Positions 6,120 to 56,587 of a stretch of DNA of 64,000 bases are shown here, in pieces. The notes under the pieces are model-generated. The model saw nothing but the letters and a program-made list of their open reading frames with translations, searched no databases and was not told the origin of the DNA. The translations under genes were made by a program, and so were the position numbers. Position 1 is the stretch's first letter, and the number at the start of each line of letters is the position of its first letter. This stretch comes from Escherichia coli (GTDB taxonomy: Bacteria > Pseudomonadota > Gammaproteobacteria > Enterobacterales > Enterobacteriaceae), in the NCBI RefSeq assembly GCF_044324875.1, contig NZ_CP172188.1. One strand, 5' to 3'.

Positions 6120-6431
6120 AATACTGACTGTTGCGCCCTGGCATTATCGTGGGGTATATTTCTACGGCACCTTAGAAAAACGGGTGCCGGGATTGGAACC
6201 CCGGATAATGCAAAAGGCGACACAGACGCCGAAAGCGTCTTTTCTTGTGTCATGCCATCGCACAGCCATACGTAGCGTTTAGCTCAGAGATCAATGGTAG
6301 TGCTGGCTGGGCTGCCGAAAGGCAGGCCGGTTCCCTTTTGCGCCGGTAGTTCCAACCCAGTCAGTGCTACCGCCATTGAGATTGGAACCTCACGCGGTAG
6401 CTCCTTAAATTAGCAAAAGGAGGCTGCCAAT

Positions 6432-11838: not shown

Positions 11839-12228
11839 AGTGCTCCTGGATTTTCTCTTTCTGGACATTGACGTCTCCACTGGTTTAAACACGGCAATGG
11901 AGACTGTGGTGAAAAGAGTTAATTCCCGGAGTGACTGGCAGGATGCCAATCAATGATCGGAAGCATGCCAAATCGTGATCGATTGTGATGCCAAACTGTG
12001 ATCGGAGATGGATGCCAAATCATGATCGATTCGAATGCCAAACTGCGATCGATTCAGATGCCATTTTGCAGCCAAATTTCTGTCAAAAAATAAAATCCAC
12101 AAAAAGTGGTTGACACTATTTTGGAAATCACAAACTGCACATAATCCATCGCGCTAACGGCTCCCGTTGAAGGTTCTTTTGACGATTAACTTTCAGCCGA
12201 AGCGCGGTAGGGAGTCATAACGCCAAAG

Positions 12229-12281: not shown

Positions 12282-12935
12282 ATGGAAAAGATCGCAATAT
12301 TCAGCCTGACCACCAGCAAGCCTCAAATGCTCACTGCAATACTGAAAGACGGTGCTCTCATTATTAACGAAGTAAAACCCCTTCCCGCGTCAGCATTGGA
12401 GCAAAAGCAAAAAATTCCTCCAGCTATAGCAGCCCTGCGGAAAAGCAAATTTAAGGTACTGGTAGACGAAATTACGCCAACGATCTCCGCTGGCACCGGA
12501 GCAAGCCAGGTTACTCTCAAGACCCGTCATGCCGATGGCAGAGCAGCAATCATCGTCGGGATGGAAAGATACAGAGAGTTAAAACTCCAGAAGCTATTAT
12601 CCCTGCCGCAAAATAACAAAGGTGCTTTCGAAATCCCTGACTCCATCGTTGACACCGAATACAACGGTAACGGAGAAGAAGTCTACCGGGTGAACTGGCA
12701 GGATATCAGGCCGGAACATATTCTGATGGTCCTGTGTTGCTACGCGACCGTATACCACAACGTTGCCAGTGCAGATTACGTAGAGCAGATGACCGGCACA
12801 GTCGAGAAAGAGCAAAAAACAGGCATACTCGCTTCGTTCCTGTCCATTATTGGGCATGAAAAAGTTGAAGCAGGCACCTCCCAGCCAAAGTCACTGGCTG
12901 GGAAAGAAGTTGATGAAGATACCGTGATACTTTGA
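12282..12935 (+). CDS. hypothetical protein (217 aa)
   Basis: ATG at 12282 with GGAGGAAGG RBS (ORF track begins at GTG 12240); no recognisable family. Confidence 0.5.
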   Translation: MEKIAIFSLTTSKPQMLTAILKDGALIINEVKPLPASALEQKQKIPPAIAALRKSKFKVLVDEITPTISAGTGASQVTLKTRHADGRAAIIVGMERYRELKLQKLLSLPQNNKGAFEIPDSIVDTEYNGNGEEVYRVNWQDIRPEHILMVLCCYATVYHNVASADYVEQMTGTVEKEQKTGILASFLSIIGHEKVEAGTSQPKSLAGKEVDEDTVIL

Positions 12936-13272
12936 TCACATTAGTAGCTTTGTTAACTCCCTCAATACCAGGTAGAAGAGTAACAAAAACACTGACGTGG
13001 ATACCTGCTGAGTTAAAGAAGCACTAATGAATTTATTCAATAAATCAATCAGCTTATTAAAAATATTCATCTTTTCGAATCCATTCGATCGGTAAATAAC
13101 ACCCAGCTCACTATCGAGCTGGTCCACGCCTTAAGATTAATGAAAGTCACTTGTTGACAGTCAATAAATTCCAGGGTGGCGAAAAAACTCTGTCTATACG
13201 GATAGTGCTTGCATTTTACTCTTTCTGCGTGTAGCGTATATACACAGGTTGCACGCACGAATGGAATTATTT

Positions 13273-19109: not shown

Positions 19110-20090
19110 GTGGCCCAGGAGTTACAACAATATTTTCTACAGTCAGTGCTCATTAACGATAACAAAGTGCCACGAGACTGGATTTTTACCGCAGTATATG
19201 TAGAAAAAACCAGCCTCAAAGCCCCTTTGCTAAAACTGGAAATTCATGACGCTACCGGCACCGTAATTGATGACTGGAAAGCCAAATACGGTGCATCGCT
19301 GGTGGCTGAAATGGGCGATCCAAACGGTAATGCAGGCACTTTTAAAACAGATTTCTTTGTTACGTCTGCAATGCTGGCTGGTGATGTTGTTACCGTTATT
19401 GCTGTCAGTGAAGACGTGCGCAGGTTTAAGATCCCCTCCCCGCGCACAAATTTACATACCAACAAAACACCAGACGCTATATTCAAGGCATATTCCGGCA
19501 AGCTTAAAATTACCAGCAGCGTGCTAAAACGCGCAGTTACATATCATCTGAATGCCGGTGACAAACCGTCAAAAATGCTTTCGGAGATAGCGCGAGACAA
19601 AGGTGCATTATGTTGGGTATGCCGGGGGGAATTTAACTTTTACACCCTGGATGATCTGATGAAGCAAACGCCATCATTTACCTACGAGGGGAATAACCCT
19701 AAAGCAGAATACACTTTGTCCAAAATGCGCCTACTCCAACAGGAACATGCGACAACAGCAAAGAATCAATATCGTTTTGTTGGGTATTCCATGACCGATG
19801 GCTACGTCGAATATGGCGATAGCTCACTCCCAGTGCGTTATATATCCGACTCTGATATGGAAACTCTTCGCAATATGCAGCTGTCTCTCGTCCCCAAAAT
19901 GGATATAGAAGTCGCAGGCAATCCGGATATAAAACCGGGAATGGTAATAGAGATTATCGTATACCGCTATGACCAGGAAAACCGCATTGATGAATCAATG
20001 CCCCGCAAGCTGATAGTAAAAAATGTTGCGCACTTTGAAGACCGCGTAGGCTACACAACACGAATGATATTAGGAGTGCCGAACAAATGA
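19110..20090 (+). CDS. phage baseplate-module protein (326 aa)
   Basis: GTG start directly after the upstream stop; operon context. Confidence 0.45.
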   Translation: MAQELQQYFLQSVLINDNKVPRDWIFTAVYVEKTSLKAPLLKLEIHDATGTVIDDWKAKYGASLVAEMGDPNGNAGTFKTDFFVTSAMLAGDVVTVIAVSEDVRRFKIPSPRTNLHTNKTPDAIFKAYSGKLKITSSVLKRAVTYHLNAGDKPSKMLSEIARDKGALCWVCRGEFNFYTLDDLMKQTPSFTYEGNNPKAEYTLSKMRLLQQEHATTAKNQYRFVGYSMTDGYVEYGDSSLPVRYISDSDMETLRNMQLSLVPKMDIEVAGNPDIKPGMVIEIIVYRYDQENRIDESMPRKLIVKNVAHFEDRVGYTTRMILGVPNK

Positions 20091-20740
20091 AGCGTAGAGC
20101 GCAAATTGTTGGAACTGTGCACCCGGCAGGGCTTATGCGTGCTCAGGTCCGTGTTTTACCAGACTGGAATGGCGTTCCTGATGACGATCTACCCTGGGCA
20201 GAATACCTGTTACCCATAGGTAACGCGTTTGTACCTACAGTAAAAGGCGACCTGGTATGGGTAGAGTTTCCTTATCTGGATGTTAATGGTCGAATTGATA
20301 CCAGACGCCCAATGATAGTTGGCGCAGCTCAGGATGCGCCTGGCGGAGTACCAAACGTCGCGCCGGAGGCGTCAGGCAATGGTAGCGGCTGGACGCCACC
20401 AGAAGTAGACGGAGCGCCTCCCCGCCCGCAATTTTCGGCGACAAAAGATTTCGTGATTCACCGCAACAATGTGCTCGAAGTGCGAACGGCTGGCGGTGGA
20501 TATGAAATAGCGAATACGGCAGCAGGCTCAAGGATTGGAATGAATGAATCAGGGCAGATATACATCATTGGTCCGGCTGATGTAGTAGTGAATGCGGGAG
20601 GGAGTGTTAACGTCAAATCAGCCGATAACATCAGCGTTAATGGCAAAAACATTACTGTGACAGCCGACGAAAATATTGATTTCAAGGCTGGAGGCACCTT
20701 CCAGGCTATCGCAAGCAACTTTGATTTCAAGAAGGGATAG
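20087..20740 (+). CDS. baseplate central spike protein (gpV/gp5 OB-fold type)
   Basis: N-terminal GDLVWVEFPYLDVNGR OB-fold-like motif and C-terminal repetitive beta-helix-like VNVKSADNISVNGKNITVTADENIDF. Confidence 0.5.
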   Translation: MKRRAQIVGTVHPAGLMRAQVRVLPDWNGVPDDDLPWAEYLLPIGNAFVPTVKGDLVWVEFPYLDVNGRIDTRRPMIVGAAQDAPGGVPNVAPEASGNGSGWTPPEVDGAPPRPQFSATKDFVIHRNNVLEVRTAGGGYEIANTAAGSRIGMNESGQIYIIGPADVVVNAGGSVNVKSADNISVNGKNITVTADENIDFKAGGTFQAIASNFDFKKG

Positions 20741-23315: not shown

Positions 23316-24977
23316 TTAACCTAACTTCGCCCAGGTATCACGCAGCCCAACGGTGCGGTTAAATACCGGTTTTTCCGCCGTAGAATGGCGGCTATCGAGG
23401 CAGAAGTAACCTTCACGCTCAAACTGGAATGCTTTACCCGCAACCGCATCTTTCAGCGACGGTTCAGCAAAGCCCTGTTTGATCACCAGCGATTCCGGGT
23501 TAATCACCGACAGGAAATCATCCGCAGCACCTGGGTTAGGCACGCTGAACAGACGATCGTACAGGCGGATTTCAACCGGCAGCGCATGTGCCGCGCTCAC
23601 CCAGTGAATAACGCCTTTCACTTTACGACCATCTGCCGGATCTTTGCTTAAGGTGTCGGCGTCATAAGTACAGAAGATGGTGGTGATATTGCCTTCGGCA
23701 TCTTTCTCCACGCGTTCAGCCTTAATGACGTAAGCATTACGCAGACGCACTTCTTTACCCAGCACCAGACGTTTGTACTGCTTGTTAGCTTCTTCGCGGA
23801 AATCGGCGCGGTCGATCCAAATCTCACCGCTAAACGGCACCTGACGGCTACCCATTTCCGGTTTGTTCGGATGGTTCGGCATGGTGACCATTTCGCCTTC
23901 GCCCTGGTAGTTTTCGATAACCAGTTTCACCGGATCGATAACCGCCATTGCGCGCGGCGCATTTTCGTTGAGATCTTCACGGATGCAGGATTCCAGCGAC
24001 GCCATCTCAATGGTGTTGTCCTGCTTGGTCACGCCGATGCGTTTGCAGAACTCACGAATAGAAGCCGCAGTGTAACCACGACGACGCAGACCGGAAATGG
24101 TCGGCATACGCGGGTCATCCCAGCCTTCAACGTGTTTGTCGGTCACCAGCAGGTTCAGCTTACGCTTGGACATCACGGTGTATTCCAGATTCAGGCGCGA
24201 GAATTCGTACTGGCGCGGGTGAACAGGAATGGTGATGTTGTCCAGCACCCAGTCGTACAGGCGACGGTTGTCCTGGAACTCAAGCGTACACAGAGAGTGC
24301 GTAATACCTTCCAGCGCATCGCTGATGCAATGGGTGAAGTCGTACATCGGGTAGATGCACCACTTGTTGCCAGTCTGGTGGTGTTCAGCAAATTTAATGC
24401 GGTACAGCACCGGATCGCGCATTACGATAAATGGCGACGCCATGTCGATTTTCGCACGCAGGCAGGCTTTACCTTCTTCAAAACCACCGGCACGCATTTT
24501 TTCGAACAGCGCCAGGTTCTCTTCAACGCTGCGATCGCGGTACGGGCTGTTTTTACCCGGCTGCGTCAGGGTGCCGCGGTATTCGCGGATCTGTTCCGGC
24601 GTCAGTTCGTCAACATACGCCAGGCCTTTGTTGATCAGTTCAACAGCATAGGCGTGGAGCTGATCAAAATAATCGGAGGAGTAACGGATGTTGCCAGACC
24701 AGTGAAAACCTAACCATTCAACGTCGTTTTTAATCGACTCGACGTACTCGATATCTTCTTTTACCGGGTTAGTGTCGTCGAAACGCAGGTTGCACTGGCC
24801 TTTATAGTCCTGGGCGATCCCGAAGTTCAGGCAGATAGATTTCGCATGACCAATATGCAGATAGCCATTCGGTTCCGGCGGGAAACGGGTATGTACTGTG
24901 GTGTGCTTACCACTGGCCAGATCTTCATCGATGATCTGACGAATAAAGTTAGTCGGGCGGGCTTCTGCCTCACTCAT
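23316..24977 (-). CDS. glnS: glutaminyl-tRNA synthetase
   Basis: 553 aa; class I aaRS HIGH ([13 protein letters not shown]) and KMSKS-like (VMSKRK) motifs; essentially collinear with E. coli GlnS as recalled from memory. Confidence 0.95.
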
Positions 24978-25245: not shown

Positions 25246-25533
25246 TTATTTTGCTTCCTCAGACTCCGCTAACATGAGGATAGCATGGCGGATCATATTC
25301 AATTTGCTACGATTATGCTTTTTACTTAACGCATCAAGTACCTGGTACTCGTATTCATTGAAACCAACACGAATAGATTTAAAATCACGTGGAGCGTCCT
25401 TATCGAGCACTTTGTTGTCTTCTGGTTGCTCACCCGGCACCAAATCAGCCTTACTTGCAAAATCCTCAATTCGGCGTTCAAGATCGGGGTCTTTTACTTC
25501 GGGGGCTTTTACCGATTTACGAGGCTTAATCAC
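25246..25533 (-). CDS. ParG-like ribbon-helix-helix centromere-binding protein
   Basis: C-terminal RHH-like segment (SIRVGFNEYEYQVLDALSKKHNRSKLNMIRHAILML); overlaps the ParA-type ATPase gene. Confidence 0.65.
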   Translation of the reverse strand: MIKPRKSVKAPEVKDPDLERRIEDFASKADLVPGEQPEDNKVLDKDAPRDFKSIRVGFNEYEYQVLDALSKKHNRSKLNMIRHAILMLAESEEAK

Positions 25534-26167
25534 TTAATAACTCCTTAACCAACATCTGGATTTCACCTTTAGCTTTCCCGTTGTCCATCTCAACAACGCC
25601 CTTCCCTTCAGCCATGCAATCGCGGTAAACCTTACGATCACGAATGATGGTTTTCAGCAACTTCAGTTGCGGATATTCAGCCAGGTACTCTTTGGCCTCA
25701 TTGGTTTCATTCACAACCGGATTGGATGGGGCCATTGTTAAGACTGCGAACGCCTTAATGCTAGGATTAGGCATCAGGTCCAAAGCCTCTTCAAACACTT
25801 CAACAAAGTGTGCCAGCGTGTCTAAATCTGGTTGAGATGGTCTGAATGGGACCAACACAATATCTGCAGCGGTTATGCCTGTACGCATCTCTTTGCTATC
25901 GCGCCCGGCTGTATCAACAACTACAAATTCATAACGCTTATCCAGATCGAGAAGTGTTTCTCGAATATTACCAAACTTCTGGACACAATGAATTACAGGA
26001 GAAACCTCTGCCGTGTTACGGTCAGCGGCCCAGCGGGCAGCTGTTCCTTGCTTGTCTGCATCTAGTAACACTACATCCTTATTTTCGCGGGCAAGCTCCG
26101 CACAGATGTTTACGCTTGTGGTTGATTTTCCACAGCCACCTTTTTGGCTGACTACCAATATAATCAT
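25526..26167 (-). CDS. ParA/ParF-type partition ATPase (type Ib)
   Basis: Deviant Walker A KGGCGKST, about 213 aa, no N-terminal HTH domain. Confidence 0.85.
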   Translation of the reverse strand: MIILVVSQKGGCGKSTTSVNICAELARENKDVVLLDADKQGTAARWAADRNTAEVSPVIHCVQKFGNIRETLLDLDKRYEFVVVDTAGRDSKEMRTGITAADIVLVPFRPSQPDLDTLAHFVEVFEEALDLMPNPSIKAFAVLTMAPSNPVVNETNEAKEYLAEYPQLKLLKTIIRDRKVYRDCMAEGKGVVEMDNGKAKGEIQMLVKELLSD

Positions 26168-26189
26168 ATCCGTTCCTCGGTGTTATTTT

Positions 26190-26430
26190 GGTATCAAACT
26201 GGTTCCAAACAGAAGCCTTATTGATGCGGTTTTGGCTCTATAGTGGAGTCATTATGCTTTGCAAAAGTATAACACTAATCATTCTAAATTTGCCCTCTGT
26301 TGCATCCTGTTTAACACGAAATCAGCACTAAATTGGAACCAGATACAAAGCAGCACCATAACAACACCGTTTTGGTACTAAAAGAGCACCAAACTAGAAC
26401 CATAACGGTATAAAAAAGGCTGCAAATTGC
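26190..26430. repeat. candidate centromere-like repeat array for the ParF/ParG system
   Basis: Several TGGTTCC/TGGAACC/TGGTACT/TAGAACC-type motifs upstream of the parF-like gene. Confidence 0.4.
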
Positions 26431-26452
26431 AGCCTTTGAAGATGTAGATTGG

Positions 26453-26824
26453 TTAATCAGGGAGTGAGTTTGCCAAATTCTGAGCAGAGCGGCTTTTCGG
26501 AACGCCTGGTTTTTTTACATCCTCTGAGACAGAGGTTTTTCCTTCAGTAGGTTCCCGAACTTCATGCGAAATTTCAAGAAACGAAACCAGCATTTTTCTG
26601 ATCACTTCAGAGCTATTATCACCGGATAAAAGCGATGCCAACATGGGAGGTAATCTGCTATCAACCTCGCCAAGAGCGATACCTGCAAGCATCGCAGTGC
26701 GCACCATATCATTGCGATCACTTAATGGATGGGCCTCAATTTTTGCCACAGCATATTGCTCACTGGCGTAAGCGTTAAGATCTGAACGAAGATAAAACAT
26801 TATTTTTCGACGTTCTTTAGACAT
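26453..26824 (-). CDS. parR: ParR-like partition adaptor (type II system)
   Basis: Small protein downstream of parM; N-terminal RRKIMFYLRSDLN...RTAMLAGIALG resembles ParR of R1. Confidence 0.55.
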   Translation of the reverse strand: MSKERRKIMFYLRSDLNAYASEQYAVAKIEAHPLSDRNDMVRTAMLAGIALGEVDSRLPPMLASLLSGDNSSEVIRKMLVSFLEISHEVREPTEGKTSVSEDVKKPGVPKSRSAQNLANSLPD

Positions 26825-26834
26825 GGCAACCTCA

Positions 26835-27794
26835 TCAACCGATAGATTTTAGACCATATACAAGAGCAAGTTGTGGATCATCAGCAACGAAAAACCTATC
26901 GTCACGAATGTTTACCTGCTCACGGATAGCATCAGCAACAAGCGGCGCGCCGCCACCAATTACCATAACATGTGTGTATCCTTTGAAATCACTGATCACA
27001 TCCAGTACGCGTGTACGGAGTCGCTCTATGCTTGACGAAATGGCTTTCTTAACATCATCAATAGCAGACGGATCGTTAATATTGTCGGTCAGATAATCCT
27101 CATCATCTCGATTAATGATTAATTGATCGACGTTATAATTAGAGGTTTCGGTATTAGCTTTTGCAAGTGCCTGTCTGACCTCTTTAGTTACCAGCGAAAC
27201 GCCGAGATTAGAATCGCCAAATACGCGAGAAACGGCGGTCATTTGCCCGGCAACCATCGACACATCCAGAGTAGTCCCGCCAAGATCAACAATAAGCACA
27301 GAATGCGCTGGCACAAGGCTGTCGCACAGACCGATCCCTGCGGGTATTGACTCCGGGCGCACAGTCACTTTTTTGATAGTAAAAACCTGACCTTTGTTAA
27401 GGGTGACTGGTCGCATCAGGCTGGCCTTTTTCCGCTCAATATTTTTCATGTTGTATTGTGCGTCGTCGTCATAAAACTCTGCCAGTGGCAACGTGACTAC
27501 TATTTCCACTTCTTGAGGCTCAATGCCACTTGTAAGCAGGGCATGATGAACAGCAAGCACATTAAGCGGGCTGTATTGCCATTCAACGTTATTCGTTGGC
27601 AGAGCATCCGGCGAGATCAAGTCATATGAATATTTTTCGTCATCAATGATGTAGTTAAACGTTTTTCCTGCGCCAAATGTGGCGGACCATCCACGTTTAA
27701 AACTGTTCGGGCAGATATGGGTTCGAGTTTCCCCGTCTTGTTCCCACAGCATTTTGATATTGGTAGAACCATCGTCGATAAAAATGCGCATCAT
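26835..27794 (-). CDS. parM: ParM/StbA actin-like partition ATPase
   Basis: MRIFIDDGSTNIK N-terminal phosphate-1 motif as in ParM; ATG 27794/27791 with GGAG RBS (ORF track 27920 extends into the iterons). Confidence 0.8.
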   Translation of the reverse strand: MMRIFIDDGSTNIKMLWEQDGETRTHICPNSFKRGWSATFGAGKTFNYIIDDEKYSYDLISPDALPTNNVEWQYSPLNVLAVHHALLTSGIEPQEVEIVVTLPLAEFYDDDAQYNMKNIERKKASLMRPVTLNKGQVFTIKKVTVRPESIPAGIGLCDSLVPAHSVLIVDLGGTTLDVSMVAGQMTAVSRVFGDSNLGVSLVTKEVRQALAKANTETSNYNVDQLIINRDDEDYLTDNINDPSAIDDVKKAISSSIERLRTRVLDVISDFKGYTHVMVIGGGAPLVADAIREQVNIRDDRFFVADDPQLALVYGLKSIG

Positions 27795-27884: not shown

Positions 27885-27955
27885 CAGATTTGAGACAAAC
27901 CAGAGACAAACCAGAGACAAACTAGAGACACACTAGAGACAAGTATGAGAAACAA
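27885..27955. promoter_or_regulatory. parC-like centromere/promoter iterons
   Basis: About six tandem 11-bp repeats (accagagacaa / actagagacac) directly upstream of parM. Confidence 0.6.
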
Positions 27956-28013
27956 GAAATCTTAAGAGTGAAAATCACAAAGTGGAGAAGATTTAAGAAA
28001 AAGGAGGTGTTAG

Positions 28014-28298
28014 ATGAGTGCAATAGCGACCTGTGACACAGTTTGTTCCGGTCATGGAGGATTCCCTCCGCGACCTGTAGCAGAAACAGTTTCCTGGTTT
28101 ACCGTAAATGGAAAGCCAGTTGTTGTAGATGGTGCCATGTTTCCCAGTCACACTGACGGTAACAGTGCACATCCAGGGGCAGCTGTATCGACGCGAGTAT
28201 GGTTTTCGATAGGTGGAAAGGGAGTTGTCTGTGTAGGCGATCCGCTTTCTTGTGGTTCTGTTATCGCCAACGGCGAGGATATTTTTCAGGTTGCATAA
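28014..28298 (+). CDS. PAAR-like spike-tip protein
   Basis: CSGHGG...VNGKPVVVDGAMFPSH...IGGKGVVCVGDPLSCGSVIANG pattern resembles PAAR-repeat proteins such as T4 gp5.4. Confidence 0.5.
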   Translation: MSAIATCDTVCSGHGGFPPRPVAETVSWFTVNGKPVVVDGAMFPSHTDGNSAHPGAAVSTRVWFSIGGKGVVCVGDPLSCGSVIANGEDIFQVA

Positions 28299-29104
28299 TG
28301 CTTGATTCAATAGGTGAAGTTAAAGCCTTCAAAATTCTGTCAGATGCCGGTATCTCTACACCAGAATCTATAACCATAAGCCGGGCAGCTTCTGTAAAAG
28401 CCTCATCGCTCGCCAGCGCCATACAGGGAATAGTTCACGCCGATAAAACCTATCCTGATTCTGTTTCGGCCTGGACTACTCAATTGCTTGGCTTTTCTGA
28501 ACAGCTCAATGAGGCCAGCAAAGCGTCTTCATCACTGGCTGATTCTCTTTCCCCATACACCAAGCCATCAGAGCTGTTACAGATGAAGATTGGCTGGGAA
28601 TGCTACGCAAAAGGTAACGAGCTGACCCCCATACCTGCTTTCGCCCTTGTTGAGGGAATGGGGAATGTTTCCATTCCGCAATCTCTAACGGACGCATTGA
28701 CGGCGCTAAAACTTGATGCTCTGAAAACCGCCATGAACGCCATTAACGCAAAAATTGAAGCTGCCGGAAGTGCTGGTGGTGGTGAAAGCAATGGTGGACA
28801 GGGTGGTGCTGGGGGCGCTCAGGCTCCAGTCATTACTCAGGATGAAATTGATGCTTTACGGGAAGCAGTGACAGCCGCCGAAGTTTTACTCTCCGAAATT
28901 AACTCAGCAAGTGAGGGTGTCGTAGCCCTTACAGGTCGCATTAAAACGTCAACCACTCAGGCAACCAAAGGTTTAGAGAACGCTGTCGCCATCACGTTAA
29001 CTGGTTCTCTACTGGATGATGCAGTAATGAGTCCGGCAATCAGTTTAATCATGCCACAAGGCGTTATTGATGCGCTCCAAAAGAACACCAAAAAGGAACC
29101 ATAG
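28298..29104 (+). CDS. hypothetical phage protein (268 aa), Ala/Ser/Thr-rich
   Basis: ATG 28298 overlaps the upstream stop (TAATG); ORF track 28199 is an upstream extension. Confidence 0.45.
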   Translation: MLDSIGEVKAFKILSDAGISTPESITISRAASVKASSLASAIQGIVHADKTYPDSVSAWTTQLLGFSEQLNEASKASSSLADSLSPYTKPSELLQMKIGWECYAKGNELTPIPAFALVEGMGNVSIPQSLTDALTALKLDALKTAMNAINAKIEAAGSAGGGESNGGQGGAGGAQAPVITQDEIDALREAVTAAEVLLSEINSASEGVVALTGRIKTSTTQATKGLENAVAITLTGSLLDDAVMSPAISLIMPQGVIDALQKNTKKEP

Positions 29105-29159
29105 AAACACCACTTAGGCACACAAAAGGATGTATATTGGTACATGTTTAACACCAAAA

Positions 29160-29633
29160 ATGAACCTGAAGAGGATGGTTTTGAAAAAGATAATTTTGAT
29201 TGTAATTGCGCTTTTAGCCATTTCTGGAATTTACCGAACAACGACGGCAGTTATCGAACACATCAGGTATGTCCGATCGCTTGAAGACTCAAAATCACAA
29301 CTGGAAAGCACGAACAACACGCTTTCTACCGCATTACAGTTAAGTGAGAACGCTCGCTCAGCCATGCTGACCGAAAACGAAAGAATTAAAGCACTGGAAA
29401 AGGAGTACCAGCGCAAAACAGCAGAACTGAATGCCAACCTAATCAAACAACGAGAGGAAAGCCAGAATGAAATCACTCGCCTTGAAAATGCGTTGCGCCG
29501 TGCTGGGATTAACGATGTGCGTGTGCCTGATGACGTTATCAGGATGCAGCGGGAACGGGCAAAAGCCATCAACCAGCGTGCCAGTGAAAATTACCGTAGA
29601 AGCCACCAGCAAGCCGCAGGCAAATCTGATTGA
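29160..29633 (+). CDS. i-spanin (Rz-like) candidate
   Basis: N-terminal TM helix (KKIILIVIALLAISGIY) followed by coiled coil; contains an embedded out-of-frame lipoprotein ORF. Confidence 0.45.
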   Translation: MNLKRMVLKKIILIVIALLAISGIYRTTTAVIEHIRYVRSLEDSKSQLESTNNTLSTALQLSENARSAMLTENERIKALEKEYQRKTAELNANLIKQREESQNEITRLENALRRAGINDVRVPDDVIRMQRERAKAINQRASENYRRSHQQAAGKSD

Positions 29634-29793
29634 TTACTCCCCTTGTTTAGTGCCAGAGGACACGCCAGTGCTGTTAAACAAGTATCCGACATACGCTGAA
29701 CAGTTATTCAGCACGATCGACGAATGCAACCAACGAAACGCACTGAATAACCAAAGAAACAGGGAGATTTGGGAAGGGAAGGGGCGGCAGTGA
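29467..29793 (+). CDS. o-spanin (Rz1-like) lipoprotein candidate, overlapping Rz in another frame
   Basis: Signal peptide with lipobox LSGC; starts inside and extends past the Rz-like gene. Confidence 0.45.
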   Translation: MKSLALKMRCAVLGLTMCVCLMTLSGCSGNGQKPSTSVPVKITVEATSKPQANLIDYSPCLVPEDTPVLLNKYPTYAEQLFSTIDECNQRNALNNQRNREIWEGKGRQ

Positions 29794-29820
29794 GCTTCAC
29801 AAAATCTATATAGCTATTTT

Positions 29821-29846
29821 ATGTTAGAAAAATAATTTGAATTTTC
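29821..29846. promoter_or_regulatory. operator-like motif upstream of immunity module 2
   Basis: atgttagaaaaataatttgaattttc; near-identical inverted copy at 40562..40592 upstream of module 3. Confidence 0.4.
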
Positions 29847-30019
29847 GAACATAAACAATAAAATAAATCATCAAAAATTTGATGTTGATCTTCCATGTTT
29901 TCAGGCTTATATTCACGCCGTTGCAGCAAATTCTGCGACCGGGTTTAGCAGCCTGAATGTACATGCGGACAACCGCAGATATCCGATATTGCGGTATTTT
30001 TGTGTCCGTAAAACCATGT

Positions 30020-30110
30020 TACGCCCGAATTATGGTGGGGCGTGATGGGGAGGCTTCGGCCTGCTGGTTTCATGTACGCCAGTCTGCTAACCCCGTCACG
30101 TCCTGCCACC
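30020..30110 (+). ncRNA. c4-like antisense RNA region of immunity module 2 (boundaries approximate)
   Basis: Element ctgctaa (about 30083) is complementary to ttagcag at 29945 and 30116 in the icd leader; compensatory changes in module 3. Confidence 0.45.
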
Positions 30111-30160
30111 CGTTTAGCAGCGGGTAGCAGGTTGTTAAACCTGTACATGAGGCCGTAACT

Positions 30161-30385
30161 ATGGTTAATGCCAATCCTTGCTCACGTCCAGAATTCATCT
30201 GGCGTTTTCACTCCCTGCAAAAACACTGCGATCACTTCGCAATTGCCGCAACTGAAAAAGAAGCCCGTTCTCTGATCCCTGATCAGTATGGTGTTCTTAC
30301 TGGTCGTTTCTCTACTTCCCCACAACCAAACACTAATCCCTGGTATCGCAATATTACCAATCCCGGAATTGCGGAGGCACACTGA
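30161..30385 (+). CDS. icd: Icd-like protein, module 2
   Basis: Paralog of the 6432 and 40248 copies; stop overlaps the ant start. Confidence 0.7.
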   Translation: MVNANPCSRPEFIWRFHSLQKHCDHFAIAATEKEARSLIPDQYGVLTGRFSTSPQPNTNPWYRNITNPGIAEAH

Positions 30386-31305
30386 TGGATATCTGCATTC
30401 TTGAAAAGCCATCAATGACCAGCATTGAGATCGCGGAGCTGGTGGGAAGTCGTCCAGATAACGTAAAAATATCAATAGAGCGCCTGGCTAAATCTGGAGT
30501 TATTCAACTTCCTGCATTGCAGGTTTTCGAAAAAATCAATAACTTAGGACTACGCCGTAGTGTCGAGGCTTACGTCTTCGAAGGCGAGCAAGGCAAACGA
30601 GACAGCATTATTGTCGTTGCGCAGCTCTCTCCCGAATTCACCGCCCGGCTGGTGGACCGCTGGCGCGAACTGGAAGAACAAGTACGCCAGCCGTTGACCG
30701 AAATAGAGATGATCGCCGCAATGGCTGCAAATGCAGTTCAGCAGCAAAAGCGGCTTCATGTTGTTGAGTCAAAGGTTAGCCAGGTTGCTGAAACCGTCGA
30801 GCAGATCAAGAAGGGCAACATGCCAGAAGGTTACATTGGCTACCGCCAGCTGGCGGCGAAATGTGGCCTGACTGAAGCCAAATGTCGCAACCTGGTTAAC
30901 GCTTTCCGGATTCCCACCGATACGCATGAGTTTTTAACTCCAGATGGTTTGCTTGCGCGACGCTCCATTGTGGCCCTGGCCCCCTTCCGGAAAGCCTTTA
31001 AGCAGGTGATGTCGGAGGCAGAACCACGCAACAAACGCTGGTATCATCCGAAGATGGGGCTGTTTCAGGCAATCCATCATCCTGTGCCTGAAAGCCCAAA
31101 GGATAATCTGTCACTACATACCGTCAGAGAGAAGATCAGGACTGGATACGCAACAGTGTGTCGTCGTTCTTCCTGGCCTGAAGGTATATGGGTGTGGCCC
31201 GAAGGTGGATCACGAAAGCACTGGCGCACTATCCGGGACGGGAAAATCCATGCTATTGATTTAGCGCCAGAGGATATTGTTGCTACGGACTGGATTGTTA
31301 GTTAA
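30385..31305 (+). CDS. ant: Rha-family antirepressor (Ant), copy 2
   Basis: Rha-like N-terminus; C-terminal domain homologous to the other two copies. Confidence 0.8.
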   Translation: MDICILEKPSMTSIEIAELVGSRPDNVKISIERLAKSGVIQLPALQVFEKINNLGLRRSVEAYVFEGEQGKRDSIIVVAQLSPEFTARLVDRWRELEEQVRQPLTEIEMIAAMAANAVQQQKRLHVVESKVSQVAETVEQIKKGNMPEGYIGYRQLAAKCGLTEAKCRNLVNAFRIPTDTHEFLTPDGLLARRSIVALAPFRKAFKQVMSEAEPRNKRWYHPKMGLFQAIHHPVPESPKDNLSLHTVREKIRTGYATVCRRSSWPEGIWVWPEGGSRKHWRTIRDGKIHAIDLAPEDIVATDWIVS

Positions 31306-31313
31306 TTACTGTT

Positions 31314-31336
31314 GCCCCGGCCTGTCCGGGGCTTTC
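31314..31336 (+). terminator. rho-independent terminator after ant copy 2
   Basis: gccccggcctgtccggggc hairpin followed by TTT. Confidence 0.6.
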
Positions 31337-31340
31337 GTGA

Positions 31341-31745
31341 CTAAAAATCTGTTCGCTGTCGCCATGCGTTTTTTAACTCAGGAATATCCGCCATTTCAAT
31401 TAACTTGCGAAGTCCAGCACTGACTTTCCCATTGCCAACCATAGCAAGCCAATCTCTTACAGCTTTCGGCATGTAGAGCGTTGCAGTTACCGGCTCTTCA
31501 ACCCTGGCAGGACATCCGCATACAGGCCATTTAATTGATTCCATAACTTCGGATGCCGGGGTGAGGGCGGGGACATTGAGTATATCTCTACCAGAAAACT
31601 GGATAACGATCCGTTCAGCGAGCGAGAGTATCTCACTTTCGGCAAGAATTGATGCCAACTGCGCCTCAACAAGAAAGCGACTTGTTGTGTTCAGAGAGTG
31701 GCTCTTAGCGCCATTTTTATACGAAACAAAGATTCGATACGCCAT
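31341..31745 (-). CDS. hypothetical protein (134 aa), operator-proximal
   Basis: ORF with an operator-like motif immediately upstream of its start. Confidence 0.45.
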   Translation of the reverse strand: MAYRIFVSYKNGAKSHSLNTTSRFLVEAQLASILAESEILSLAERIVIQFSGRDILNVPALTPASEVMESIKWPVCGCPARVEEPVTATLYMPKAVRDWLAMVGNGKVSAGLRKLIEMADIPELKNAWRQRTDF

Positions 31746-40248: not shown

Positions 40249-40299
40249 AGTTACGGCCTCATGTACAGGTTTAACAACCTGCTACCCGCTGTCAAACAG

Positions 40300-40390
40300 G
40301 TGGCAGGGCGTGACAGGGTTGACAGACTGGCGTACATGAAACCAGCAGGCCGAAGCCTCCCCATCACGCCCCACCATAATTCGGGCGTAA
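40300..40390 (-). ncRNA. c4-like antisense RNA region of immunity module 3 (boundaries approximate)
   Basis: Paralogous to 30020..30110, with the pairing element changed to ctgtcaa and both target sites changed to ttgacag. Confidence 0.45.
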
Positions 40391-40561
40391 CGTGGTTTAC
40401 GGACACAAAAATACCGCAATATCGGAAATCTGCGGATGTCCGCATGTACATTCAGGCTGTCAAACCTGGTCGCAGAATTTGCTACGACGGCGTGAATATA
40501 AGCCTGAACATCTGGAAGATCAACATCAAATTGTTGATGATTTATTTTATTATTCATGTTT

Positions 40562-53560: not shown

Positions 53561-54239
53561 CTTTGGAGTTTCGCCCTTGGGACTATCGTATCCGGTTTTG
53601 ATGCGCCGATGCATACCGGAGATTTCAGGTTACGTGGTCGGCTGCCACACAAACGGATGGTGACGCATTTAACCTGATCACCTGGGGGTATAAATGGCAA
53701 AAAGTGGATATTTGATGCATCCCAACCGGTGCACAAAGATATGACTGGCGGACTTACCACCAGCAAAACAGCCTGCCACAATATGGGATTTAACTATATC
53801 GTGAAGGCGGCGTATACCGTTACTGAACGGCATAGAGCCGCAGTGGCGCTGGCCAGCTGCAACGCCAGAAACCTTGTGATATCCAGGCGTTCAGCTCGTC
53901 GATATAATCCAGCACGGCGGGCAGTTTTGCCGTTTCTTCCAGTTTCAGACTGCGACCTGCCCGCCGTTTGGGTTGATAGGTCGACGGCTTCACGCCTGGA
54001 TCCACCCGGCACTGGCGTTGCAGTTGGCAAGTCTCCAGCTCTGCGGCTCTATGCCGGCTCAGTATCACGCCGCCCACGATTACCGTTCCAGGTATCCCAT
54101 GGTGTGGCAGGCTGTTTTGTGGTGGTGTCCGCCGGTAATCACCCGGTTGAGGTGCATCAGAACGGGGTTCCCGTTTTCCGTTTATACCGTCTCCCGCGGT
54201 GATTAGGGTTACATGCGTCCCAAATCCGTTCAGTGTGGC

Positions 54240-54480
54240 AGTCCGAAACCACGTAACCCGATATCCTCCGGTATGCATTATCATCACGAACCGGAGTACG
54301 ATAGTCCCAAGGGCGAGATACTGAAAGTAGCGCACGCCCGGTATCAACCTTTCGTCCGTCATATCCACGGATAAACTCACCGCGTAAATCGGGAAGACGG
54401 ATCGGTTAGACTCTGGCCAGAACAGGATATTGTTCTTTTGTAAACGCGCCCTCACAATGTAACCAGCCTGCTACGGCGGT
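54240..54480. repeat. degenerate fourth copy of the repeat (minus orientation), inverted partner of 53335..53560
   Basis: Reverse complement aligns to the 53335..53660 copy, including gcccttgggactatcgta. Confidence 0.5.
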
Positions 54481-54564
54481 GTGACGGTGATACCCTTCGC
54501 ATACAGGCTTCTGATAGAGGTCAGAATAGTAGCCTGCATACCATTGTCTGACATTACCACGATG

Positions 54565-54960
54565 TTACGAGGATCGCTGAATGTTGTCCCGTCCGGCATT
54601 TTGAAGGCCCTCACGAAGGTCTGTAATGGAATCTTCATTGTTGAATCCCATGCCGACTATCCCCGAGGTTCCCGTAGTGTCCTGGTTATAATAATCCAGC
54701 ATTGCTGTTCTTAACAGCGTTGCCCCTTGTGCGGACAGCAACTTACGTCCTGTATCAACTTTGCGCCCGTCGTCCCATCCACGGATAAACTCACCGCGTA
54801 AATCGGGAAGACGGAGGGTCGGGTAGGCTCTGGCCAGAACAGGATATTGTTCTTTTGTAAAGGCGCGCCCGTCGCACTTTAACCAGCCTGCTGGCGGTGT
54901 GGCGGTGGGCCACGGAACAGGCACACCAACGGGTAGCGCCGAGCCTTCTCCTAAACCAAC
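54565..54960 (-). CDS. alternative tail-fiber C-terminal cassette (start-less; joined to the fiber gene only after inversion)
   Basis: Minus-strand frame encodes the same PVPWPTATPPAGWLKCDGR...RGWDDGRKVDTGR junction followed by a different 57-aa tail. Confidence 0.5.
   Translation of the reverse strand, partial: VGLGEGSALPVGVPVPWPTATPPAGWLKCDGRAFTKEQYPVLARAYPTLRLPDLRGEFIRGWDDGRKVDTGRKLLSAQGATLLRTAMLDYYNQDTTGTSGIVGMGFNNEDSITDLREGLQNAGRDNIQRSS
54746..54960. repeat. right inverted repeat of the invertible region
   Basis: Reverse complement matches 52920..53133. Confidence 0.8.
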
Positions 54961-54970
54961 GTTTATCTCT
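54945..54970. promoter_or_regulatory. candidate invertase crossover site, right
   Basis: ccTTCTCCTAAACCaacgtttatctc adjacent to the invertase gene. Confidence 0.45.
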
Positions 54971-55025
54971 CAAATCCTCCCCACATTATCTCAGTACTTT
55001 AACCACTCAAAAGGGAGTATTTTTA

Positions 55026-55598
55026 ATGCTGATTGGCTACATACGTGTGTCAACAAATGACCAAAACACAGATTTGCAACGCAATGCATTAATGTGCGCA
55101 GGATGTGAACAGATTTTTGAGGACAAAATGAGCGGAACCAAGTCGGAACGACCAGGCCTGAAACGCGCTTTAAAGTGCCTTAAAAGAGGGGATACATTGG
55201 TGGTCTGGAAGCTGGATCGGTTGGGTAGAAGAATGAAACACCTCATTGCTCTCACAGAAGAGCTACGCGCAAAAGGTGTCAATTTTCGCAGTCTGACGGA
55301 TTCAATCGATACCAGCACTCCGATGGGAAGGTTCTTTTTTCATATGATGGGTGCACTGGCAGAAATGGAGCGTGAACTGATAGTTGAGCGCACGCTGGCA
55401 GGACTGGCTGCTGCGCGATCACAAGGAAGAGTTGGAGGACGTCGCCCGAAACTGACGAAGGAGCAGCATGAGCAGATCGCAAGATTGCTCCAGAAAGGGT
55501 ATGACAGAAAGCGGCTGGCAATTATCTATGATATTGGACTGTCAACGATCTACCGCTATCACCCTGTTGGGACTGTCATAACGCAACCTGAAATGTAA
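55026..55598 (+). CDS. cin: Cin/Gin/Hin-family serine DNA invertase
   Basis: MLIGYIRVSTNDQNTDLQRNAL...LVVWKLDRLGR...FRSLTDSIDTS collinear with Mu Gin as recalled; ATG 55026 (ORF track 54897 extends into the repeat). Confidence 0.9.
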   Translation: MLIGYIRVSTNDQNTDLQRNALMCAGCEQIFEDKMSGTKSERPGLKRALKCLKRGDTLVVWKLDRLGRRMKHLIALTEELRAKGVNFRSLTDSIDTSTPMGRFFFHMMGALAEMERELIVERTLAGLAAARSQGRVGGRRPKLTKEQHEQIARLLQKGYDRKRLAIIYDIGLSTIYRYHPVGTVITQPEM

Positions 55599-55814: not shown

Positions 55815-56141
55815 ATGTTTGCAGATTATGAAAATCTGGCTGTAGTAGTCATAACATCCCTACTAAGTGGAACCGGCGTATTCCTTCTCGGAGTTAGAGA
55901 CGGGCGCATTTCTGCGTCCCTGCTCAATCTTGCGAGTGAATTGTTTACTGCGGTAACAGCCGGGCTTGCGGGGTATGGGGTGGCGGTTAGCCAAGAATGG
56001 CCTGAAGGTATCATTTTCTGCGTTGTTCTGATTGCCAGTAACAACGGTAGTGAAATTTTACAGGGCTTGAAGTCCAGAGCTAGTAACGTCTTGAATCTCT
56101 TAAGCGTAATAGCGAATGGGGGAAAAGGTGGAGAGAAATAA
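55815..56141 (+). CDS. holin-like small membrane protein (LydA-like candidate)
   Basis: 108 aa with hydrophobic helices; first gene of an operon that continues into DarA-like genes, as in the P1 dar operon. Confidence 0.45.
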   Translation: MFADYENLAVVVITSLLSGTGVFLLGVRDGRISASLLNLASELFTAVTAGLAGYGVAVSQEWPEGIIFCVVLIASNNGSEILQGLKSRASNVLNLLSVIANGGKGGEK

Positions 56142-56587
56142 TGGGTAACTTTGGAAATTATTTCATTTTTATCATGGCATTTGTTGCCATCATTGACCGT
56201 TTCATTTTTCGTCGCAAGAGTGTTGAGATTTTGAGTATTGGTGACGCTGTAGTGAAAGAATCCGCTATAGCATTTCCTGTTTCGCTACGTGTTAAGCGAA
56301 GCTGGGTCAGCAATGCTCAAATCGAATATTGGTTGCAAGACCTGAAAAATCCATCTGTGGTTATTTCAGGGAAAACGCGACCAGTTGACGCCTCAAAACG
56401 CGGTGAGAGAGAAGAGTATTTGCTCATCGATACGAAATATCTTGAGCCAACGAAGTGGGATCTGAAAGTCACATTGACTAACGGTAACTGCCGACTGAAT
56501 CCGCTTTATCGCATTTTCCCTATCAATGACTGCATAGAGCGCCAGTTTACGATCGAAAAGCGTAAAGGAGACTGGGATGTCAAATAA
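56141..56587 (+). CDS. membrane-anchored protein (LydB-like candidate)
   Basis: N-terminal TM helix (FIFIMAFVAIIDRFIF); coupled to the upstream gene. Confidence 0.4.
   Translation: MGNFGNYFIFIMAFVAIIDRFIFRRKSVEILSIGDAVVKESAIAFPVSLRVKRSWVSNAQIEYWLQDLKNPSVVISGKTRPVDASKRGEREEYLLIDTKYLEPTKWDLKVTLTNGNCRLNPLYRIFPINDCIERQFTIEKRKGDWDVK

Follow-up and report, generated by a model that had tools for sequence, protein, structure and literature searches.

Why do a PAAR-like gene and an overlapped Rz/Rz1-like pair lie among plasmid-maintenance genes, at a distance from the spike and holin-like genes of the same element? The window, that is, the whole stretch of 64,000 nucleotides of Escherichia coli DNA that we analyzed (contig NZ_CP172188.1), derives from a D6-like phage-plasmid of the P1 supergroup, and an earlier note on it had read this location as a sign of rearrangement or of a different role for the genes. 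The geography that it described is accurate. The cluster is placed between a partition module (ParA/StbB/ParM genes, 25526-27791, minus strand), its left-hand neighbors, and an immI-like immunity module (29907-31305, with c4-a1b1 targets, C4 RNA, and icd-like and ant-like sequences); the gp5-like spike gene (20087-20740) lies 7.3 kb upstream, for which the note had given about 7 kb, and the LydA/LydB holin/antiholin genes (55815-56587) lie 26 kb downstream, as it had stated. Our analysis upheld the gene identifications and went against what had been concluded from the location. The region is very probably the D6-lineage version of the P1 operon upfC-upfB-ppfA-mlp, a late four-gene unit for two virion proteins that serve entry and two lysis proteins that serve release, and it is an ordinary, already understood arrangement, not a displaced module. 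Its genes follow one another along the plus strand in the order upfC, upfB, i-spanin (Rz), and o-spanin (Rz1), and the sequence from 28002 to 29784 is 98% identical to D6 at the nucleotide level.

The first gene, the upfC homologue (28014-28298, plus strand), has a Shine-Dalgarno sequence, AGGAGG, 7 nt upstream and encodes a 94-aa minimal PAAR protein that is predicted to form the monomeric tip of the central tail spike. The profile searches that had been proposed as a check confirm the PAAR assignment: the protein passes Pfam PF05488 (PAAR) narrowly, at 28.0 bits against a gathering cut-off of 27, and matches phrog_281 'PAAR motif' (E 2.5e-28). Among solved structures it matches PDB 9vyi_A, which is P1 UpfC (E 1.9e-35; the two proteins are 56% identical), T4 gp5.4 (E 6e-6 for 5iv5, 1e-5 for 4ku0), and the Vibrio cholerae type VI PAAR protein 4jiv_D (E 7e-4). 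Outside the P1 group its nearest relatives are tip proteins of the myovirus gp5.4 type, and it carries no effector extension. T4 gp5.4 itself (PDB 4KU0, 5IV5) is 97 aa long against 94 aa, is about 30% identical (E ~1e-5), keeps the His/His/His/Cys positions, and likewise has a gp5-like spike as its partner. These positions, H14, H46, H53, and C80, are invariant in an alignment of the window, D6, P1, Citrobacter, and Pantoea homologues with T4 gp5.4, in which the final residues of the T4 sequence were given no weight; the metal-site residues of PAAR tips are reportedly three histidines and one cysteine near the apex (Shneider et al. 2013). The PAAR gene appears as 'alanine racemase' in some GenBank records.

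The cognate spike gene in the window, which matches phrog_430 'baseplate hub subunit and tail lysozyme' (E 7.5e-42), is the equivalent of D6 orf66, for which the annotation gives similarity to P1 gene 5. Unlike its T4 counterpart, the P1-type gp5 partner is without a lysozyme domain (PMC12810830, PMC9024508). P1 UpfC has been modeled in cryo-EM density as a monomeric tip on the gp5 spike, where it resembles T4 gp5.4 (PMC12810830), and HHpred had earlier given the same PAAR/spike-tip assignment (PMC9024508). By analogy, the UpfC homologue of the D6-like element would form a cap, a PAAR cone, over the blunt end of the trimeric gp5-like spike and give the membrane-piercing tip a sharper point.

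Between the PAAR gene and the spanin pair lies a gene that the earlier note had overlooked, the upfB homologue (28298-29104, plus strand; 268 aa), whose start overlaps the upfC stop in a TAATG junction. Its product is 27% identical to P1 UpfB over the full length (263 aa, E 3e-24), matches phrog_1559 (E 2e-110), and contains a central Gly-rich linker whose length varies. It gave no Pfam match and nothing meaningful in NCBIfam, and a sequence search against solved structures returned chance-level coiled-coil and low-complexity matches only. P1 UpfB is a trimeric 'tripod' fitted at the spike tip (PMC12810830), and trimers of the homologue would accordingly be expected to attach around the UpfC-capped tip. 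This additional tip protein, encoded directly downstream of the PAAR gene, has no T4 counterpart.

The remaining two genes form the overlapped pair. The i-spanin gene (29181-29633, plus strand; Rz-like, equivalent to P1 ppfA) encodes 150 aa from a conserved TTG at 29181; this TTG/GTG start and its AAGAGG Shine-Dalgarno sequence are kept in relatives, whereas the longer in-frame starts at 29130, 29160, and 29175, including the upstream ATGs, are not. Its product matches three PHROGs, all annotated 'Rz-like spanin' (phrog_214, E 7.6e-16; phrog_89, the family that holds P1 PpfA, E 1.8e-7; phrog_2466, E 2.5e-4). A hydropathy calculation places the maximum, 2.48, over MVLKKIILIVIALLAISGI (residues 6-24 of the 157-aa form), preceded by Lys/Arg and with no second hydrophobic segment, which fits an N-in type II topology with an N-terminal transmembrane helix. 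Charged residues make up 30.6% of the protein, and pN/pS is 0.27. Neither Pfam nor NCBIfam yielded a match to the i-spanin, and its search against solved structures gave chance-level coiled-coil and low-complexity matches only. Direct BLASTP against P1 PpfA was not significant (E 0.11), and tblastn against 50,697 phage records found D6 as the sole match, so that the link to PpfA had to rest on PHROG profiles; the two proteins also have a C-terminal motif, RxP.D..R, in common.

The o-spanin gene (29467-29793, plus strand; Rz1-like, equivalent to P1 mlp) starts in the +1 frame relative to 29181 and overlaps the end of the i-spanin gene by 167 nt. It encodes a 108-aa precursor, a predicted outer-membrane lipoprotein, whose signal sequence MKSLALKMRCAVLGLTMCVCLMTLSG is followed by CS, with the lipobox LSGC at residues 24-27. 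The +2 residue is Ser, not Asp, in line with sorting to the outer membrane, and the mature protein would have 82 aa with 3 Cys and 8.5% Pro. The lipobox reads LSGC in P1 and in the Citrobacter element and LFAC in the Pantoea element. The o-spanin matches phrog_456 (E 2.6e-5) and phrog_30284 (E 6.8e-4), the latter being the family that holds P1 Mlp, and BLASTP against P1 Mlp gave E 2e-5. The P1 and window spanins are thus distant relatives that share PHROG families at the profile level only. Matches to curated Pfam models stayed under threshold (O_Spanin_T7, 16.1 against 25 bits; LysC, 11.8 against 27) and the NCBIfam search, P2_Rz1 included, gave nothing; this places the o-spanin outside the Rz1 families of T7 and P2.

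Could the overlapped pair be something other than a spanin, a chance +1-frame ORF or an unrelated membrane protein beside an unrelated lipoprotein? The silence of the curated Pfam and NCBIfam models would allow it, and so would the records: the +1-frame gene is absent from the RefSeq/PGAP annotation of the plasmids inspected, and in the D6 record both genes of the pair are 'hypothetical', with an orf54 start that lies downstream of the lipobox and hides the lipoprotein nature of the product. We nevertheless consider this reading very unlikely. The +1-frame ORF is whole in all seven genomes compared, the Citrobacter and Pantoea elements included, with its ATG, its AGGAAA Shine-Dalgarno sequence, and a lipobox always in place, and the overlapped architecture persists down to about 40% protein identity. 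Between 29635 and 29790, pN/pS is 0.15 in the o-spanin frame and 0.70 and 2.66 in the other two, so that purifying selection is specific to this frame; divergence within the overlap (0.101) is below that of the flanks (0.146 and 0.188). Significant matches to four different 'Rz-like spanin' PHROGs, among them those of P1 PpfA and Mlp, and the RxP.D..R motif of the i-spanin point the same way, and they also answer the profile search that the Rz/Rz1-like claim had called for.

In architecture, the pair resembles lambda Rz/Rz1 in that a type II inner-membrane protein with a charged, presumably helical periplasmic domain is coupled with a small +1-frame outer-membrane lipoprotein with Cys in its mature form. 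For lambda Rz/Rz1 and other two-component spanins we refer to Summer et al. 2007 and Kongari et al. 2018, as cited in PMC9025707. The window differs in that its genes are overlapped where those of lambda are embedded, in that they stand outside any holin/endolysin lysis cassette, and in that, at curated thresholds, their products show no significant sequence similarity to the families of lambda, T7, or P2. The closer model is P1, which has the same overlapped pair and the LSGC lipobox in the +1 frame; its ppfA and mlp are described as putative spanin genes that partly overlap and whose operon has no linkage to the remaining lysis genes (PMC9025707), and its RefSeq record calls mlp an 'Rz-like spanin'. 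In the D6-like element, the i-spanin would be anchored in the inner membrane through its N-terminal helix and the o-spanin, after cleavage by signal peptidase II between LSG and C, would be lipid-anchored in the outer membrane, while the periplasmic C-termini of the two would bind each other across the periplasm. With the peptidoglycan degraded by the endolysin, the spanins would then fuse both membranes and complete lysis.

Several features suggest that the four genes are expressed together: the TAATG coupling of upfC and upfB, the lack of a terminator excess, and an upstream motif. The latter belongs to a late-promoter-like element (27972-27992, plus strand), composed of the box ATCACAAAG at 27974-27982, a 4-nt spacer, and a -10-like hexamer, GAAGAT, at 27987-27992, which is weak; the element lies 42 nt upstream of the PAAR start codon. 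The motif AAAT[CA]ACAAA[CG], defined post hoc from the same window, occurs there 7 times against 0.25 expected, and five copies lie 42-160 nt upstream of upfC, gene 23, and the R-S-U, lydA-lydB, and mat-like operons; besides the one at upfC, copies stand at 12125, 31834, 49790, and 55762. The copy upstream of upfC is kept in D6 and in three diverged relatives despite differing flanks. Its layout, with the spacing to a NANNNT hexamer, matches that of the annotated P1 late promoters, for which we used the Lpa-dependent model in which the -22 box AAGT[GT]A[CT]TT, an inverted repeat of 9 bp, is separated by 4 nt from a -10 hexamer. The element with the 9-bp box AT[CA]ACAAA[CG] therefore resembles a P1 late promoter in layout, not by sequence, and the box differs from the P1 -22 box. 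A promoter of the P1 type proper was rejected as a candidate for the cluster, as the pattern AAGTNACTT, 3-6 nt, TANNNT has a single match in the window, intragenic (13134-13152, minus strand), and none upstream of upfC; the P1 record annotates no late promoter upstream of upfC. A generic search for -10 hexamers preceded by a 9-bp inverted repeat gave unrelated hairpins and no common element. Between 27500 and 32000, scans for the sigma-70 consensus and for terminators both gave as many hits as chance alone would; no sigma-70 promoter pointed toward upfC, and within the cluster no terminator was convincing. The motif that the cluster has in common with the capsid, tail-fibre, holin, and mat operons suggests late co-expression, and transcription of the Lpa type may be supposed from this shared sequence.

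The location itself reads differently once relatives are compared. In the P1 operon, upfC-upfB-ppfA-mlp(-upfA) (NC_005856, nt 62950-65063), the four genes are arranged and oriented as in the window, where upfA has no homologue, and D6 orf57-orf54 (NC_050154 / MF356679) are the same four genes; the D6 record notes orf57 and orf56 as similar to P1 upfC and upfB, and RefSeq names orf57 a PAAR protein. The order dmt, upfC-upfB-Rz-Rz1, capsid-sheath (gene 23, gene 22) is common to P1 and to the D6-like, Citrobacter, and Pantoea elements, with hrdC/rdgC ahead of dmt in three of these four lineages. P1 likewise has hrdC-dmt on one side of the operon, plasmid-maintenance genes on a flank, and no linkage to holin or endolysin genes (PMC9025707). 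What varies is the plasmid-maintenance side. Partition and replication cassettes lie to the left of the cluster, to the right, on both sides, or on neither, depending on the lineage, and differ in type: the window has ParM/ParR and a small ParA on the upfC side, in P1, repA-parA-parB lie on the mlp side, and the cluster of the Pantoea element has no such genes next to it. Since these cassettes change sides around a fixed cluster, it is the cassettes that are the movable parts and not the late genes that have been displaced. The adjacency to plasmid genes would then be ancestral backbone synteny, with partition and replication cassettes inserted or exchanged on either side.

A recent rearrangement that took the cluster away from the tail and lysis modules and placed it among the plasmid-maintenance genes of this element, a form of the rearrangement that the earlier note had suggested, is accordingly extremely unlikely. 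Its appeal lies in the distances to the spike gene and to lydA/lydB and in the flanks, a ParM/ParR/ParA module and an immI copy, as well as in the variability of the right-hand side, where the window has the immI copy (c4-icd-ant), which P1 lacks after its cluster, and D6 carries orf53/orf52. Such a move would not leave the same gene order and the same backbone neighbors in P1, in D6, in diverged D6-like plasmids at 81% nucleotide identity, and in the Citrobacter and Pantoea elements, nor would it fit par/rep genes of varying type and side, or the 114 PLSDB plasmids that carry the cluster at at least 80% coverage. The other suggestion, a role of the genes in plasmid life rather than in virion or lysis, with expression in the lysogen for exclusion, envelope remodeling, or interaction with a host type VI system, is most unlikely in its turn. 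Type VI secretion is the best-known setting of PAAR proteins, and the window protein matches NF033420 (NCBIfam) at E 2.8e-9, yet far under its cut-off; the cluster adjoins parC-like iterons and partition genes; and the P1 record predicts two sigma-70 promoters, P1ppfA and P2ppfA, inside upfB, which could drive ppfA/mlp independently. P1 plaques still form after CRISPRi knock-down or deletion of upfC, upfB, ppfA, and mlp, all four of which are dispensable in this respect (PMC10695390; PMC9024508). Against this stand P1 UpfC, 56% identical and modeled on the gp5 spike in the density of the virion, and P1 UpfB, fitted at the spike tip (PMC12810830), the minimal PAAR form with its gp5.4-type relatives, the complete spanin architecture, and the upstream motif, which argues for late lytic expression; and P1 is described as having its lysis genes spread over several operons that are not linked (PMC9025707).

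That spike tip, tripod, and spanins have been inherited together in at least four diverged lineages could also speak for a functional coupling, such as an 'envelope-crossing' operon influenced by the partition complex or spanins that aid both entry and exit, a notion to which we give very little credence. The cluster invariably borders the site at which partition and replication cassettes are exchanged, and the 222-bp intergenic region in the window holds both parC-like iterons and the region upstream of the cluster; the D6 allele of this parM-upfC region differs from that of the window. A partition complex, if bound, would sit 30-80 bp upstream of the candidate cluster promoter.

With the D6-lineage version of the P1 operon as the preferred reading, we infer the virion location of the first two products and the lysis function of the last two in the D6-like element, and the finding has little weight beyond annotation. 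The sole new item is the D6-lineage spanin pair, which is unannotated or mis-started in the records inspected: the RefSeq/PGAP annotations lack the o-spanin gene, and the D6 record starts it too late. D6-like phage-plasmids, which are frequent in E. coli, Salmonella, and Shigella, thus carry a complete predicted two-component spanin. For the reading of phage-plasmid genomes, the late-gene backbone is the stable part and the plasmid-maintenance cassettes are the mobile ones, and the candidate D6-type late-promoter box, with its P1-like geometry and its other sequence, could help to define late regulons in this group.

The cluster, four plus-strand genes at 28014-29793, lies in a region with close relatives: by megablast, positions 27900-29900 are 98% identical to Escherichia phage D6, and a 24-kb stretch around the cluster matches many ~90-kb non-mobilizable plasmids of E. 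coli, Salmonella and Shigella at 94-97%. Because of these matches, we place the window on sequence grounds among the D6-like phage-plasmids of the P1 supergroup. P1 carries the same four genes in identical order, upfC-upfB-ppfA-mlp, with upfA next and oriR-repA-parA-parB beyond it. The D6 record marks the first two counterparts, orf57 and orf56, as 'similar to P1 gene upfC' and 'upfB', and in RefSeq orf57 bears a PAAR protein label; for orf55 and orf54 the D6 record gives 'hypothetical'.

The earlier note had proposed a PAAR-like gene and an Rz/Rz1-like overlapped pair here, and profile searches support both assignments. The upfC homologue (28014-28298, +; strong SD AGGAGG before the start) encodes a 94-aa PAAR protein that passes the Pfam PAAR model narrowly (28.0 bits vs a gathering threshold of 27) and matches phrog_281 (E 2.5e-28). 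Its matches among solved structures include chain 9vyi_A, deposited for P1 UpfC (E 1.9e-35), T4 gp5.4 (E ~1e-5) and the type VI secretion PAAR 4jiv_D (E 7e-4). Its alignment with T4 gp5.4 has three invariant His and one invariant Cys, residues reported to bind the metal at the cone apex (Shneider et al. 2013). For P1, HHpred gave UpfC as a gp5.4-like spike tip, and upfC deletion was harmless (PMC9024508).

The second gene, left unmentioned by the earlier note (28298-29104, +; start overlapping the upfC stop, TAATG), encodes a 268-aa homologue of P1 UpfB (27% identity, full length, E 3e-24), and for P1 an AlphaFold model of UpfB has been fitted at the tip, where three 'tripods', each a trimer, are placed (PMC12810830). 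A Gly/Ser/Ala-rich low-complexity linker (residues ~165-188, window 28790-28860) separates the two halves of the homologue, and its length and sequence differ among relatives.

Spanins comprise many unrelated families, and architecture is what defines them. The i-spanin is placed at 29181-29633 (+) because the TTG/GTG start at 29181 and the invariant AAGAGG before it are conserved between the window and four relatives, whereas the upstream candidates ATG 29130, 29160 and 29175 are not. The o-spanin (29467-29793, +) lies in the +1 frame behind an invariant AGGAAA-N7-ATG, kept even in the Citrobacter relative. Three 'Rz-like spanin' PHROGs match the i-spanin (phrog_214, E 7.6e-16; phrog_89, E 1.8e-7; phrog_2466) and two the o-spanin (phrog_456, E 2.6e-5; phrog_30284, E 6.8e-4); P1 PpfA belongs to phrog_89 and P1 Mlp to phrog_30284. 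Neither protein reaches the thresholds of the curated Pfam and NCBIfam spanin models, which therefore puts the pair outside the T7 and P2 families.

The architecture is that of spanins: the i-spanin, 31% of whose residues are charged, has a single N-terminal hydrophobic helix preceded by Lys residues, and the o-spanin signal peptide ends in a lipobox, LSG|C, with Ser at +2, leaving a mature protein of 82 aa that contains three Cys and is 8.5% Pro. The window, D6, three plasmids (81-88% nt identity), the Citrobacter and Pantoea elements and P1 all keep the +1-frame ORF intact; across the D6/Citrobacter/Pantoea set, conservation extends to the lipobox and to two motifs, PC(L/Q)(V/I)(P/D)E and (D/E)ECN. 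In the part downstream of the overlap, the o-spanin frame has a pN/pS of 0.15, vs 0.70 and 2.66 for the remaining frames, and divergence is lower in the overlap (0.101) than in the regions read in one frame only (0.146 and 0.188), which fits dual coding. The overlapped ORFs are thus a computationally well-supported, predicted i-spanin/o-spanin pair. In P1, ppfA and mlp are putative spanin genes, named 'o-spanin' and 'i-spanin' respectively in the text of PMC9025707, but the P1 sequences show the opposite, with the lipobox in Mlp and the membrane helix in PpfA. All four of upfC, upfB, ppfA and mlp were non-essential for P1 plaques in a genome-wide CRISPRi screen (PMC10695390).

The o-spanin gene is missing from PGAP annotations in the records inspected, the D6 orf54 start lies downstream of the lipobox, and several GenBank plasmid records label the PAAR gene 'alanine racemase'. 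Relatives' records with annotation problems are L001/L002 (10577-10798), L004-L008 and several CP0xxxxx GenBank plasmids. One Pantoea record labels the Dmt methyltransferase 'multidrug DMT transporter permease'.

Upstream, the divergent parM (start 27791) and upfC are separated by 222 bp; the allele of this interval in D6 and other relatives is not that of the window. At 27892-27942 stand 4.6 tandem copies of the 11-bp unit GAGACAAACCA, resembling the parC centromere of ParMRC systems as in plasmid R1, and these repeats probably serve ParM/ParR as a parC-like centromere. Closer to upfC lies the 11-mer AAATCACAAAG (27972-27982), whose degenerate form AAAT[CA]ACAAA[CG], defined post hoc in this same window, occurs seven times against 0.25 expected. 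Plus-strand copies are found 42 nt upstream of upfC (27972), 70 nt upstream of gene 23 (31834), 59 nt upstream of the R-S-U tail-fibre operon (49790), 53 nt upstream of lydA-lydB (55762) and ~157 nt upstream of a mat-like gene (12125), with further copies at 12611 (+) and 21738 (-). The last follows a GC-rich hairpin within the methylase/hrdC region.

In the P1 record, late promoters are annotated for gene 23 (LP23) and lydA (LPdar). Late promoters are also known to drive the tail-fibre and mat genes of that phage. Annotated P1 late promoters have a 9-bp -22 box, AAGT[GT]A[CT]TT, 4 nt and a -10 hexamer; in the window, AT[CA]ACAAA[CG] and 4 nt precede CATAAT, CATACT, TAAGTT, TATTGT or GAAGAT (NANNNT), making a candidate D6-type late-promoter element whose layout matches that of P1 Lpa-dependent promoters, with a box of another sequence. 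The upfC copy has the weakest -10-like hexamer, and for P1 no late promoter is annotated at upfC. Since the motif is common to these operons and is kept upstream of upfC in D6 and three diverged plasmids despite differing surrounding sequence, there is moderate evidence that the cluster forms a late operon under common control with the capsid, tail-fibre and holin genes.

The cluster does sit between a partition module (ParA, StbB/ParR and ParM genes, 25526-27791) and an immunity module (29907-31305), consisting of Rfam-detected c4-a1b1 target sites (29907-29959), a C4 antisense RNA (30028-30113, +) and, 3' of it, icd-like and ant-like ORFs (30161-31305), and it is about 7 kb from the gp5-like spike gene (20087-20740) and 26 kb from the holin-like LydA/LydB genes (55815-56587), from which location the earlier note suggested rearrangement or a different role. 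Yet the flanks vary around a fixed core. P1 has uhr-hrdC-dmt (divergent) on the left and upfA, repA-parA-parB-parS, then 23-22-21 on the right; D6 and the window have hrdC-dmt-glnS, then parA-stbB-parM, and a variable insert, then 23-22-21; the Citrobacter freundii element has rdgC-dmt, then a small ParA and partner, and repB; the Pantoea element has dmt, then three small genes, and two small genes, then capsid-sheath, with no recognisable par or rep gene adjoining the cluster. Across these four lineages the backbone dmt / PAAR-UpfB-Rz-Rz1 / capsid-sheath is constant, hrdC/rdgC preceding dmt in three, and the cluster is not displaced; distance from the spike and holin genes is likewise a trait common to the group. 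Because partition systems differ in type and side (ParABS in P1, ParMRC plus small ParA in D6) while the backbone does not, the parsimonious reading is that the late-gene cluster is stable and maintenance cassettes were inserted or swapped along its borders. For P1 itself, an organisation into 45 transcriptional units is described, and 11 late promoters (PMC10695390). A different role finds no support, P1 UpfC having been built in cryo-EM density of the virion as a monomer on the trimeric gp5 spike (PMC12810830).

The segment from the o-spanin gene to capsid gene 23 (29797-31745) is variable (vs D6 record 54233-55100): the window and plasmid pAPEC201603 carry the c4-icd-ant module and a 134-aa reverse-strand ORF, and in D6 and several plasmids their place is taken by two reverse-strand ORFs unrelated to them (orf53, orf52). 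The window holds three C4 copies (6290-6377, +; 30028-30113, +; 40296-40381, -), two with recognisable a1/b1 target sites (29907-29959 and 40449-40501); icd-like and ant-like genes follow at least the copy at 30028, and an isrK-like sRNA match (6167-6245) adjoins the first. A full-length glutaminyl-tRNA synthetase gene, glnS (23316-24977, -), has the methylase genes on one side and the partition module on the other, and is annotated likewise in D6 and relatives.

The arrangement of the cluster is a known P1 feature, conserved in D6-like elements; what is new is solely that the spanin pair of the D6 lineage is recognised.
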